IMG/VR virus record: IMGVR_UViG_2740892422_000004
Span: 1-9,268 of that record
Origin: a virus
Taxonomy: Duplodnaviria > Heunggongvirae > Uroviricota > Caudoviricetes
Length of the DNA: 9,268 nucleotides
Direction: 5' to 3' (one strand)
The notes under the pieces are model-generated. The model searched no databases, was not told the DNA's origin, and saw nothing but the letters and a program-made list of their open reading frames with translations. The position numbers and the translations under genes are program-made. Each line of letters begins with the position of its first letter. The stretch's first letter is position 1. Below, piece by piece: positions 1-9,268 of this stretch.

Positions 1-89
1 AACAGGAGGGACAGCTGATAGAAACAGAAGCCACTGGAGCACCTCAAAAACACCATCATACACTAAATCAGTAAGTTGGCAGCATCACC
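1..89 (-). mobile_element. IS1 left-end fragment (IRL plus start of insA), element body extends leftward beyond the window
   Basis: Positions 1-89 are the exact reverse complement of 9180-9268 and match, from memory, the IS1 left end GGTGATGCTGCCAACTTACTGAT... The outermost IS1 base is at 89. The insA start (GTG GCT TCT GTT TCT ATC AGC TGT CCC..., MASVSISCP) reads on the minus strand from position 38 leftward. Confidence 0.9.
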
Positions 90-91
90 GA

Positions 92-238
92 TTAAAAAGA
101 GAATATCACATTGCTGAGGCTCGTTACTGGCGTAAAGCGGGAGATAAATCAAAGAAACAACTTTGTTTATGGCAAGCACAAAGAGAGCGCATGAATGAGC
201 GCGAATTTCTTTCCACCCCATCCGAATTACCATTCTGA
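92..238 (+). pseudogene. 3' remnant of a prophage ORF truncated by the left IS1 copy
   Basis: An open frame runs out of the IS1 end without a stop and continues to TGA at 236-238 (...LKREYHIAEARYWRKAGDKSKKQLCLWQAQRERMNEREFLSTPSELPF*), ending 9 nt before the next gene's start. No start codon or ribosome-binding site lies inside the non-IS1 part. Confidence 0.3.
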
Positions 239-246
239 GGCAAATT

Positions 247-927
247 ATGGGAACTGCGACATTAATACTCGGTGAATCTGGCACCGGAAAATCAACCAGC
301 ATGAGAAATATCAATCCAGAGGAAGCAATACTTATAAAACCAATAGGCAAGCCGCTGCCATTTAAATCAAAAGACTGGTTTGCATGGGATACCAGAGCAA
401 AAAAAGGAACCGTAGTTACCACTGACAAATGGGACGTAATAGTTGCCGTAATTAAACGTGCTCACGAATACGGGAAAAGAATCGTTATTGTTGATGACTT
501 CCAGTATGTGATGAGCAATGAGTTTATGCGCCGCTCAGAAGAAAAATCGTTTGATAAGTTTACTGAGATAGGCCGCCACGCATGGGAGGTCATTAAGGCT
601 GCGCAGGATGCGCCTGATGACCTGAGAGTCTATTTTCTTGCGCACACCGAAGAAACTCCTATGGGGCGTGTGAAAATGAAGACTATCGGCAAAATGCTGG
701 ACGAGAAAATCACTGTCGAAGGCATGTTTACTATAGTTCTTCGCACCCTTACCCGTGATGACCAGTTCTTTTTCACCACAAAAAACAACGGTGCAGACAC
801 TGTTAAATCCCCAATGGGAATGTTTGATTCCAATGAGATTGATAACGATCTCTCTTTCGTCGATGCCACTGTTTGTGATTACTACGGCATCAATAATGTT
901 CATCAAATTAAGGAAAACGCCGCATGA
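247..927 (+). CDS. Sak4-like phage recombination ATPase (RecA-like core, AAA_24-type)
   Basis: 226 aa. Walker A GESGTGKST near the N-terminus, Walker B RIVIVDD around residue 80. Size and motif layout fit phage Sak4 single-strand annealing ATPases. Shine-Dalgarno-like tgagg 8 nt upstream of ATG 247. Sits where lambda carries exo/bet in the early-left operon. Confidence 0.75.
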   Translation: MGTATLILGESGTGKSTSMRNINPEEAILIKPIGKPLPFKSKDWFAWDTRAKKGTVVTTDKWDVIVAVIKRAHEYGKRIVIVDDFQYVMSNEFMRRSEEKSFDKFTEIGRHAWEVIKAAQDAPDDLRVYFLAHTEETPMGRVKMKTIGKMLDEKITVEGMFTIVLRTLTRDDQFFFTTKNNGADTVKSPMGMFDSNEIDNDLSFVDATVCDYYGINNVHQIKENAA

Positions 928-1511
928 GCAACGTAATTTTTACTTATAACGAAGAAGCAGCACTGACCGCAGGGCAAGGTGGTTTTATTAACGAAACTGG
1001 CGCTCATATCATTACCATTACTGAAGCAGAACTAAAGCAATCAGAAAAAGGCGCAAAATTTATTGGATTTTCTGGCGAATCCGACGACGGACGTAAAATC
1101 CAATATCTTAGCGTTTGTGTTCAGAAAAATGACGGCACGGAAAATAAATTTGGCGCAAATGTCGTTCACGCCATGATGGGGTGTGCCGGGATTGGACAAT
1201 TAACGCAACATATGGTTTCCACCAGTAAATTTGTTGCACCTGAATTTCATGGAAAGAAAATCGGGTTAGTGCTCCAGAAAGTATTAACCACAAACAAAAA
1301 GACTGGCGCAGACAGCTACCAGATGGAAATACGCATCCCGTTTATTGCACAAACAGGTCAAACCCTTAAAGAAAAGGCGGAAGGCAAGCAACCAGAAACT
1401 ATCGCCAACATGGTTGCCAGCCTCAAAGATAAAGACAATCGCTCTAAAAACGTAAGCCATAATCATGCAGATGATTATGGTTACAGCCAGAACGATTACC
1501 CTCCTTTCTGA
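924..1511 (+). CDS. Sak4-associated putative ssDNA-binding protein with SSB-like C-terminal tip
   Basis: 195 aa. Start ATG overlaps the upstream stop (ATGA), indicating translational coupling. The C-terminus ...HNHADDYGYSQNDYPPF resembles the acidic/aromatic SSB tail (canonical ...DDDIPF). The N-terminal part does not look like a canonical SSB OB-fold by eye, so the function is inferred mainly from context and the tail. Confidence 0.45.
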   Translation: MSNVIFTYNEEAALTAGQGGFINETGAHIITITEAELKQSEKGAKFIGFSGESDDGRKIQYLSVCVQKNDGTENKFGANVVHAMMGCAGIGQLTQHMVSTSKFVAPEFHGKKIGLVLQKVLTTNKKTGADSYQMEIRIPFIAQTGQTLKEKAEGKQPETIANMVASLKDKDNRSKNVSHNHADDYGYSQNDYPPF

Positions 1512-7021: not shown

Positions 7022-7029
7022 GAGCAATT

Positions 7030-7245
7030 AACTATTTGCCGGATGCGGCGTAAACGCCTTATCCGGCCTACGGTTCGATGCGATTTGTAGGTCGGATAAG
7101 ATGCGCAAGCATCGCATCCGACAATAAGTGCCGGATGCTGCGAAAATGCCTTATCTGGCCTACAGATTCGATGCGATTCGTAGGTCGGATAAGATGCGCA
7201 AGCATCGCATCCGACAATAAGTGCCGAATGCGACCTACATTCACA
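7030..7245. repeat. REP/BIME cluster between convergent ybhC and ybhJ
   Basis: Several imperfect palindromic units of the gccggatgcggcgtaaacgccttatccggcctac type. A ~65-bp unit (ttcgatgcgatt.gtaggtcggataagatgcgcaagcatcgcatccgacaataagtgccg.atgc) occurs twice in direct orientation, at about 7073-7137 and 7167-7231. Confidence 0.85.
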
Positions 7246-7254
7246 TGGCGCTTT

Positions 7255-9175
7255 TTACATCTGACGGTTTTTATTGAAGTTAATCAAACTACCCGCCTTG
7301 ATAATCTCGCGCTCTTCAGCAGTCAGACTTTCCATATAGAGCGTAATTTCCGTTACCGGCGCATCTTCATGGATCACATAACCTTTAAACGTCGTACCCG
7401 GATTATCCAGCGCCGCTTTAATGCCAGGGATGTAAATGTAATCCCCCACTTCAAAGGTTGGTACTTCCGCCATTTGCAGCGGTAACATCCCCCAGTTGAT
7501 GACGTTAGAACGATAGCGTTTAGTCGCGTACTCCTCGGCAATATTCGCCAGACCGCCAATCACACGCTGGCAGCTCGCCGCCTGTTCACGCGCAGAACCA
7601 TCGCCTGGTTTCACCGCATAGACCATGCTGCCAATTTCAGTTTGCAGCGGATCAATATGCTCCTGACCAGCAATCTGCTTAATGCGCGCAAACACCTCTG
7701 TCAGCTCGCTGACATTCCCCGCCAGACGCTGATTTTCCAGCTCAGCAGTCGCTTTACTTCTGCTAACATAACCGGGATCGCGGCGAGACAGGGTAAACTC
7801 CGCCAGACCAATCGGATTTGAACGATAAGAAGAGGTTTCACCGGAAGGAATCAGTTCGTCGGTGGTGGTCACTTCGTCGAGGATCTTCGAGCACACTTTC
7901 AGGACGATATTGTCAGTCAGCGCACCCAATTCCGGCCAGTCTTTAATGTTCGGCCCGTAAATCAGCGGTTGCTGAGTTGCCCCTTTCACAAAGCCCTGAT
8001 AAACACGGTTTTTATACGGCGTTACATCGAAGGCGTACTCCGGCACGTTGTCCCAGCAATCAAGTTCGCTGGCAGAGGTTAAATAGCCACCGTTTGCCGC
8101 AGTCGCAGCGATAGAACGAGCGTCCATCAACGCCACCGCTGACATCTGCCCATTAGCTGGCTTAGAGCCTTCGCGGTTCGGGAAGTTACGCGTGGTGTGG
8201 CGAATACTCAAACCGTTGTTGATTGGCGTATCGCCCGCGCCAAAGCATGGGCCGCAGAACGCGGTTCTGATGATTGCGCCTGCGCCAATCAAATCTGCTA
8301 CCACACCTTTTTTGGCGAGATCCATAAACACCGGCTGTGATGACGGGTAAACTGCCAGCGAGAAGGTGTCATTGCCACAGGATTGACCGCGCAGTGCATT
8401 CGCCGCCGCGATGACGTTTTCGTAGTTACCGCCAGAACAGCCCGCGATAATCCCCTGCTGCACTTTCAGGCGACCATTTTCCACTTTATCCAGCAGCGAG
8501 AGTTTGGCTTTACCGTGCGCCACGCGTTCGGACTCAATTTCAATCTCACGCAGAATGTCGGTCAGGTTCTGGTTCAGTGTGTCGATTTCATACACGTTGC
8601 TCGGGTGGAACGGCAGCGCAATCATTGGTTTGATGGCGCTTAAATCAACGCTGATGCAGCCATCGTAGTACGCCATCGGTTGAGGGTTAAGCTGGCAGTA
8701 ATCCTGGCCGCGACCGTGCAGCGCCAGCCAGTTATGGACTTCTTCATCGGTTTGCCAGACAGAACTTAAACAGGTCGTTTCAGTGGTCATCACGTCAACG
8801 CTGTTACGGAAATCGGTAGAGAGCGCGCTAACGCCCGGTCCAACGAACTCCATGACTTTGTTTTTGACGTAACCGTTTTTGAACACCGCGCCAATGATAG
8901 CCAGCGCCACATCCTGTGGCCCCACATACGGCGCAGGTTTTCCGGTCAGATGCACCGCAACCACGCCCGGATAGTCGATATCCCAGGTGTCATTAAGCAG
9001 CTGTTTTACCAACTCACCGCCGCCCTCACCGACTGCCATTGTCCCTAATGCACCGTAACGGGTGTGGCTGTCTGACCCGAGGATCATTTTGCCGCCGCCT
9101 GCCATCATCTCACGCATATATTGATGGATGACCGCAATATGCGGAGGCACAAAAATACCGCCATAACGCTGGGCC
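7255..9175 (-). pseudogene. ybhJ: ybhJ (aconitase-family putative hydratase), 3' portion only, interrupted by IS1
   Basis: Minus-strand ORF with the aconitase-type GSDSHT motif. Its reading frame runs straight into the IS1 end at 9176, so the first codons of the track ORF (MAAS) are IS1-derived and the native N-terminal part is absent from the window. Confidence 0.75.
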
Positions 9176-9268
9176 GGTGATGCTGCCAACTTACTGATTT
9201 AGTGTATGATGGTGTTTTTGAGGTGCTCCAGTGGCTTCTGTTTCTATCAGCTGTCCCTCCTGTTCAGC
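9176..9268 (+). mobile_element. IS1 left-end fragment (IRL plus start of insA), element body extends rightward beyond the window
   Basis: ggtgatgctgccaacttactgatttagtgtatgatggtgtttttgaggtgctccagtggcttctgtttctatcagctgtccctcctgttcagc matches the IS1 left end from memory. The insA GTG start is at 9231. The exact first base is uncertain by 1-2 nt because of the flanking g-run. Confidence 0.92.

Follow-up and report, generated by a model that had tools for sequence, protein, structure and literature searches.

Two inverted IS1 left ends bound a segment of lambdoid prophage and Escherichia coli chromosome at attλ

Positions 1 to 9,268 of the virus record IMGVR_UViG_2740892422_000004 (Caudoviricetes), a stretch of 9,268 nt referred to here in its entirety as the window, begin and end within copies of the insertion sequence (IS) IS1. 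Between the two IS1 ends lie the pL-operon end of a lambdoid prophage, the attL junction, the intact chromosomal gene ybhC and the gene ybhJ without its first 341 nt. This is the order of an ordinary attλ lysogen (pL-operon end, attL, ybhC, ybhJ) with no internal rearrangement. It is quite likely that two statements hold jointly, namely that two real IS1 copies in inverted orientation occupy the sites described below, and that the window is a contig which was broken at these repeats. The features that define the two ends are the following (window positions, strand, description).

1–89, minus strand: IS1 left end (left inverted repeat, IRL; IS1 nt 1–89), copy A, 100% identical to IS1A of E. coli K-12; the body lies past the left edge and insA runs from 34, reading leftward.
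90–246, plus strand: 3′ part of a small phage gene (62 amino acids when intact, phrog_1723, just downstream of kil in the CE10 prophage), based on a PHROG match at 2.5e-25 and alignment to CE10.
7255–9175, minus strand: ybhJ minus its first 341 nt (residues ~114–753 of 753 kept), based on NCBIfam PRK11413 (profile positions 113–753) and mapping to K-12 ybhJ.
9176–9268, plus strand: IS1 left end (IRL, IS1 nt 1–93), copy B, 100% identical to K-12 IS1A; the body lies past the right edge and insA runs from 9231.

The termini of the window form a perfect inverted repeat of 90 nt, in which positions 1–90 pair with 9175–9264 at 100% complementarity; the runner-up reported by the repeat finder within the window measures 27 nt at 81%, and a perfect repeat of 90 nt cannot have arisen by chance in 9.3 kb. 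A direct comparison gave the same limits (the reverse complement of 1–90 equals 9175–9264, that of 1–91 mismatches), and it corrects the initial annotation, which had equated the reverse complement of 1–89 with 9180–9268 and was off in register by four bases. The same annotation had taken both termini for the IS1 left end including the start of insA and had counted a failure to align with IS1 among the results that would refute it. An alignment run against the annotated IS1A of E. coli K-12 MG1655 (mobile element 19796–20563, with insA and insB annotated), bore the assignment out: the reverse complement of window 1–89 matches IS1A nt 1–89 at 89/89 identities, and window 9176–9268 matches IS1A nt 1–93 at 93/93. 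Base 90 on the left and base 9175 on the right belong to the flanking DNA and are by coincidence the same beside both copies, while 9265–9268 are four extra IS1 bases that find no partner at the left end. The insA gene begins at IS1 nt 56 according to the K-12 annotation, which corresponds to window positions 9231 (plus strand) and 34 (minus strand). Relative to IS1A (IS1 family, 768 bp, insA/insB′ frameshift transposase), the arms of the window are the same base for base, the IRL included, whereas the window shows no more than the first 12% of each copy.

A frame antisense to the 5′ region of insA runs open from the left edge across the IS1 end and continues within the truncated phage gene (2–235, plus strand), and its in-frame junction reads …SWQHH followed by RLKREYHIAEARYW…; this potential IS1-phage fusion is probably biologically meaningless.

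Each terminus is an IRL end, and an IS1 carries a single IRL; the window therefore requires two separate IS1 copies, or at least two IRL-bearing fragments. The copies are inverted relative to each other, with both IRLs pointing inward. The single IS1 joining both flanks, put forward in the initial annotation as the case that would overturn its proposal, cannot occur, given that both junctions use the same IS1 end. The proposal itself, of two oppositely oriented copies with one of them inside ybhJ, holds: the right-hand site lies after nt 341 of the 2262 nt of ybhJ, and the gene is retained from nt 342 when mapped to intact K-12 ybhJ. The further claim that the left copy truncates the prophage stands insofar as this copy interrupts it, in the 62-amino-acid gene downstream of kil, which is cut after its nt 40 as judged by alignment to the intact gene of the CE10 prophage. 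The interval between the two IS1 copies amounts to 9086 bp. IS1 generates target duplications of 8–9 bp, tends toward local hopping and has a reported preference for AT-rich targets (Lee et al., 2016; PMC5009759). The putative 9-bp target on the left, GATTAAAAA at 90–98, is AT-rich, and the one on the right, CGCTGGGCC at 9167–9175, is GC-rich. Both insertion sites appear to be new as alleles, though routine.

The remaining features of the window are listed below.

247–927, plus strand: Sak4-like ATPase that anneals single-stranded DNA (Pfam AAA_24; phrog_2872 at 6e-108).
924–1511, plus strand: SSB-like protein (phrog_743 at 4e-66).
1535–1831, plus strand: Abc2 anti-RecBCD protein (family profile match).
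1809–2006, plus strand: DUF2737 protein (Pfam/PHROG searches, as for the next five).
2003–2479, plus strand: phrog_614 protein.
2476–2919, plus strand: Ead/Ea22 protein.
2888–3409, plus strand: DUF551 protein.
3497–3808, plus strand: phrog_3680, small phage protein without assigned function.
3859–4230, plus strand: phrog_1229, small phage protein without assigned function.
4337–4555, plus strand: lambda-type excisionase, xis (Pfam Exc at 3.9e-41).
4533–5603, plus strand: tyrosine integrase, int, 356 amino acids (integrase PHROGs).
5677–5691, minus strand: lambda att core marking the attL junction, GCTTTTTTATACTAA on the minus strand (exact 15-bp core).
5738–7021, plus strand: ybhC, intact, 427 amino acids (NCBIfam PRK10531 at 3e-220; 100% identity to K-12).
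7037–7231, no strand assigned: cluster of repetitive extragenic palindromic sequences and bacterial interspersed mosaic elements (REP/BIME) between ybhC and ybhJ (direct repeats D1 and D3; Rfam naRNA4 at 7090–7160; same as in K-12).

All long open reading frames (ORFs) of 247–5603 lie on the plus strand, and the phage ORFs in the window are intact apart from the IS1-cut gene at 90–246. Positions 247–1511 read as a phage recombination module and 1535–4230 as mosaic accessory genes of the early-left (pL) operon; the latter region is patchily common to phages JEP4, HK629 and HK620 and to many prophages. Among phages JEP4 matches best, at 97.8% identity over 72% of the phage part. The int and xis genes are adjacent and transcribed toward att, homologous genomes carry them beside ybhC under the labels excisionase and integrase, and the int ORF stops 74 nt short of the core, an arrangement of the lambda type. 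The phage part can be described, from its gene content, as a mosaic lambdoid prophage seen from its pL-operon end. With the lambdoid prophages at attλ (lambda, HK629, JEP4 and the P22-like prophage of CE10) it shares Int/Xis, the exact 15-bp core, a place adjacent to ybhC and the order of the pL-operon genes, among them a Sak4/SSB/Abc2 recombination module; it differs from them in that its gene content is mosaic and that the prophage is visible for 5.6 kb only.

The att core sits at the junction of phage and chromosome in the ybhB-ybhC intergenic region, the position of a prophage at attλ. To its left there is no homology to this region of non-lysogenic K-12, and to its right the homology is perfect as far as the IS1 junction (3499/3499). 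The REP/BIME cluster is native intergenic sequence, as the K-12 sequence is identical; the naRNA4 match at this place scores 60.7 bits, barely more than the Rfam gathering threshold of 59.5. The host background is that of a K-12-like (phylogroup A) E. coli. Shigella, which was suspected for its IS1 richness, was ruled out on the 100% identity of the chromosomal part to K-12-type E. coli. A genome labelled K-12 MG1655 (NZ_CP025268.1) carries lambdoid integrase, excisionase and other phage genes beside ybhC; in the reference MG1655 (NC_000913.3) attλ is empty, and the two differ in length by just ~1.9 kb.

The window stops 89 nt inside IS1 on the left and 93 nt inside IS1 on the right. Because both ends stop at near-equal depth in the same multicopy repeat, the window is best regarded as a contig broken at IS1: ends of this kind would hardly be expected if a genome had been cut at arbitrary points but are normal for a short-read contig, and a short-read assembly stop at IS1 is the most likely reason why the window ends where it does. 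A contig break had been offered in the initial annotation as an alternative to two real copies; it explains the ends well and is compatible with two real copies, so it is no alternative to them. A single assembler k-mer was tried as the cause of the two depths and fails, since a fixed overlap gives equal depths.

As to how the copies arrived, one IS1 would have inserted in a small pL-operon gene of a lambdoid prophage at attλ and the other in ybhJ after nt 341. Both may be plain insertions, possibly parent and daughter related through local hopping, in which case the remaining prophage and the 5′ part of ybhJ would stand just past each 768-bp element, flanked by target duplications of 8–9 bp. 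The predicted left outer junction (plus strand) would read ...GTTAAGTCGATTAAAAA and then the IS1 right end GGTAATGACTCC..., and the predicted right outer junction (plus strand) would consist of the IS1 right end and then CGCTGGGCCGCCGATAAACC...; if both insertions are plain, the IS1 right end GGTAATGACTCCAACTTA... should lead either to the reverse complement of ...GTTAAGTCGATTAAAAA (kil side) or to CGCTGGGCCGCCGATAAACCAAAAACATGG (ybhJ 5′ side). As is true of every inverted IS pair, homologous recombination could later invert the segment, or a deletion could remove one side. Provided that two real copies are present, the odds are roughly even that both are plain insertions and that the missing prophage DNA and ybhJ 5′ part follow just beyond. 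This reading is favoured because the phage genes are intact, the IS1 ends are pristine and identical, and IS1 is reported to hop locally (PMC5009759). Truncation of the prophage, presence of the ybhJ 5′ part and of ybhI-ybhH, and inversion cannot be read from the window, as they all hinge on the outer flanks of both IS1 copies; the remaining prophage may lie on the far side of the 768-bp element, in another contig.

Several points weigh against plain insertion into a genome that was then assembled as a repeat-broken contig. Among the resolved IS1 copies of this locus, plain insertions are in the minority (the left copy of the enterotoxigenic E. coli, ETEC, genomes described below and those of CE10 and strain 127 are of another kind); the right-hand putative target CGCTGGGCC is GC-rich despite the AT-rich preference; the contig nature of the window is reasoned from its ends, its source assembly not having been located; and the depths of 89 and 93 nt misfit one fixed k-mer overlap.

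The same arrangement was sought in 5426 complete E. coli genomes with junction probes of 71 nt, and in further collections with exact junction patterns of 39 nt. The best complete genome covers 87% of the window at 96.4% identity, and both the left and the right junction are absent from the 5426 genomes. The exact patterns of the two junctions gave 0 matches in species-representative genomes and metagenome contigs. Exact-protein look-up placed a mid-window phage protein of 123 amino acids on 9 public contigs, none of which (0/9) has the architecture of the window, and showed the 644-amino-acid ORF of the interrupted ybhJ not to be on record. A search of the literature for the combination of IS1 and ybhJ brought up nothing relevant.

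The closest resolved analogue came to light through the right-junction probe, whose alignment to the ETEC O6:H16 strain 2011EL-1370-2 (NZ_CP022912.1, complete genome) contains an 11-nt gap. In this strain the order is IS1(−), DUF2513-xis-int, attL, ybhC, ybhJ 3′ part, IS1(+), ybhJ 5′ part, ybhI and ybhH. As in the window, the two IRLs point toward each other; the right IS1 is oriented alike and sits 11 bp from the site in the window (ybhJ nt 331 versus 342). The strain differs from the window in that its prophage remnant measures ~2 kb and is broken at another gene, and that its IS1 copies are ~94% identical to IS1A. The two architectures are, on sequence comparison, independent events; a single insertion event followed by an 11-bp deletion was rejected because the prophage remnant and the background of single-nucleotide polymorphisms (SNPs) differ. 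The IS1 in ybhJ of this strain is a plain insertion with the 9-bp duplication CGATAAACC, whereas its left IS1 has no target duplication and adjoins a truncated lipocalin gene and phage lysis genes.

This left-hand arrangement is common to at least 21 genomes (probe composed of the whole left IS1 and both flanks; 40 best-ranked records). In E1433 the inner flank is kept, tail-fibre remnants, ybhB and bioA lie outside, and ybhJ is intact; this is an IS1-gutted prophage and probably an earlier state of the ETEC series. In E2386 and five others, among the matches listed, the outer flank and IS1 join a truncated ybhD, and everything from the prophage remnant through ybhH is lost. Placed side by side, these genomes form a stepwise IS1 series at attλ, from the gutted prophage (E1433) through exchange of the outer flank for the truncated lipocalin gene (at least 21 genomes) to two end states, IS1 in ybhJ (2011EL-1370-2) or deletion to ybhD (E2386 and five others).

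Two further genomes carry IS1 in ybhJ in other settings. CE10 has, independently, the order ybhJ′-IS1-ybhD, with the right end of its IS1 toward ybhJ; this IS1 was rejected as the same insertion as that of the window, being a divergent variant with the opposite end facing the gene, ~157 bp away and accompanied by a deletion. In strain 127 (NZ_CP023377.1) IS1 lies at ybhJ nt 184 and is followed by imported DNA with an IncA/C mobI gene, which suggests that IS1 mediated the uptake of plasmid-borne or foreign DNA into the chromosome. Past mobI this strain has a second partial IS1 and metabolic genes (urea amidolyase, LamB/YcsF and NRAMP) that are foreign to the native locus.

The idea that an inverted IS1 pair is a substrate for rearrangement, advanced in the initial annotation, thus has support in the prophage gutting, flank exchange and ybhD deletion seen among the ETEC genomes at this very locus. 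As both plain insertions and rearrangements are common among the analogues, neither can be assumed for the window. A tentative but substantial share of the probability goes to at least one of the two IS1 copies being the breakpoint of a deletion or rearrangement that cost the genome the remainder of the prophage, the ybhJ 5′ part along with ybhI-ybhH, or both. The loss would have come about by IS1-mediated adjacent deletion or by recombination with another IS1, and the prophage would then truly consist of the int-proximal 5.6 kb, as the initial annotation had suggested. Precedents are at hand: the attλ prophage of E1433 was gutted to DUF2513-xis-int with IS1 at the break, the 21 or more related genomes join that IS1 to a truncated lipocalin gene from elsewhere without target duplication, E2386 and its five companions are deleted to ybhD, and the junction of CE10 is of the same kind. 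The window itself, on the other hand, bears no sign of loss, in that the retained phage genes are intact and both IS1 ends pristine, and the analogues represent other lineages and other events. Against the window, the ETEC genomes show 3–5 SNPs over the 3.5 kb of chromosome and 27 over xis/int, and to the left of 4306 they bear no relation to it.

Less can be said for an inversion of the 9.1-kb segment relative to the surrounding chromosome, which is unlikely. It could arise by homologous recombination between the inverted IS1 copies or by one-step intramolecular replicative transposition of one IS1. Standard transposition models predict a product that carries the same IS end at either side, and a one-step replicative inversion leaves inner junctions as in two independent insertions, the one difference being where the 9-bp target copies come to lie on the outer flanks. 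IS1-mediated inversions are on record for E. coli (PMC4173774). When inverted IS copies recombine to flip a segment, every IS-flank junction is kept and none is created, so the window fits either orientation (PMC5009759). More generally, IS-mediated rearrangements of E. coli have been described in the long-term evolution experiment (Raeside et al., 2014; PMC4173774) and in mutation-accumulation lines (Lee et al., 2016; PMC5009759), with inverted copies leading to inversion and direct copies to deletion, IS1 among the active elements, and inversions between IS copies escaping short reads (PMC4173774, PMC5009759). In those studies rearrangements were demonstrated, whereas the window shows the potential for one only. 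Positive evidence for inversion is lacking, two independent insertions account for the same junctions, and no flipped variant of the analogous ETEC segment occurs among the 40 best-ranked records. The more specific proposal that one transposition or IS1-IS1 recombination flipped the block int-xis-attL-ybhC-ybhJ′ (9.1 kb), the copies not being independent, is a shade less probable still. If true, it would uncouple the int/xis module and attL from the remaining prophage and lock that remainder in place.

An IS1 composite transposon with inverted arms, mobile as a unit that carries int-xis-attL-ybhC, is very improbable. Among such elements Tn9 has direct and Tn1681 inverted IS1 copies, and the window resembles both in having two IS1 copies around a segment, here of 9 kb, a geometry which is the sole point in favour. 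It differs from them in its cargo, which is chromosome of this very locus, unchanged in order and with an exact attL, and fits insertions made in situ, and neither a second context nor a plasmid copy was found: no plasmid carries at least 80% of the segment, and neither junction occurs in the collections scanned. Plasmid capture as a composite transposon was rejected, the plasmid matches being chromosome pieces filed as plasmids. An assembly artefact, that is a chimeric contig or one IS1 wrongly joined to both ends, has just as slight a chance, for although misjoins do occur at repeat-adjacent contig ends, at both junctions unique sequence gives way cleanly to IS1 at precisely the first base of the IRL, one IS1 cannot serve two IRL ends, and the interior is collinear with reference genomes throughout.

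Beyond the two copies of the window, the 5′ end of ybhJ shows a scatter of IS1 sites. Within its first ~350 nt IS1 is found at nt 342 in the window, at nt 331 in 2011EL-1370-2 and at nt 184 in strain 127 and about six others. In CE10, and probably in N32 as well, it stands near nt 185 and turns its other end toward the gene, and H75 and H79 show two more spacings. There are at least four independent sites in this region in other genomes, and the first ~350 nt of ybhJ, beside attλ, may be a recurrent IS1 target.

The components of the arrangement are all already known, namely IS1, the attλ prophage, the potential of IS copies for rearrangement (PMC4173774, PMC5009759) and contig breaks induced by repeats. 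What the window adds is the record of two previously uncatalogued IS1 sites, in a lambdoid pL-operon gene and in ybhJ, which has little import beyond bookkeeping. A draft assembly cannot tell here whether the prophage is complete, truncated or inverted, and claims of completeness or gene loss need long reads. Taken with the resolved genomes, the attλ/ybhJ neighbourhood has been repeatedly remodelled by IS1 in natural E. coli, consistent with the established biology of IS elements.

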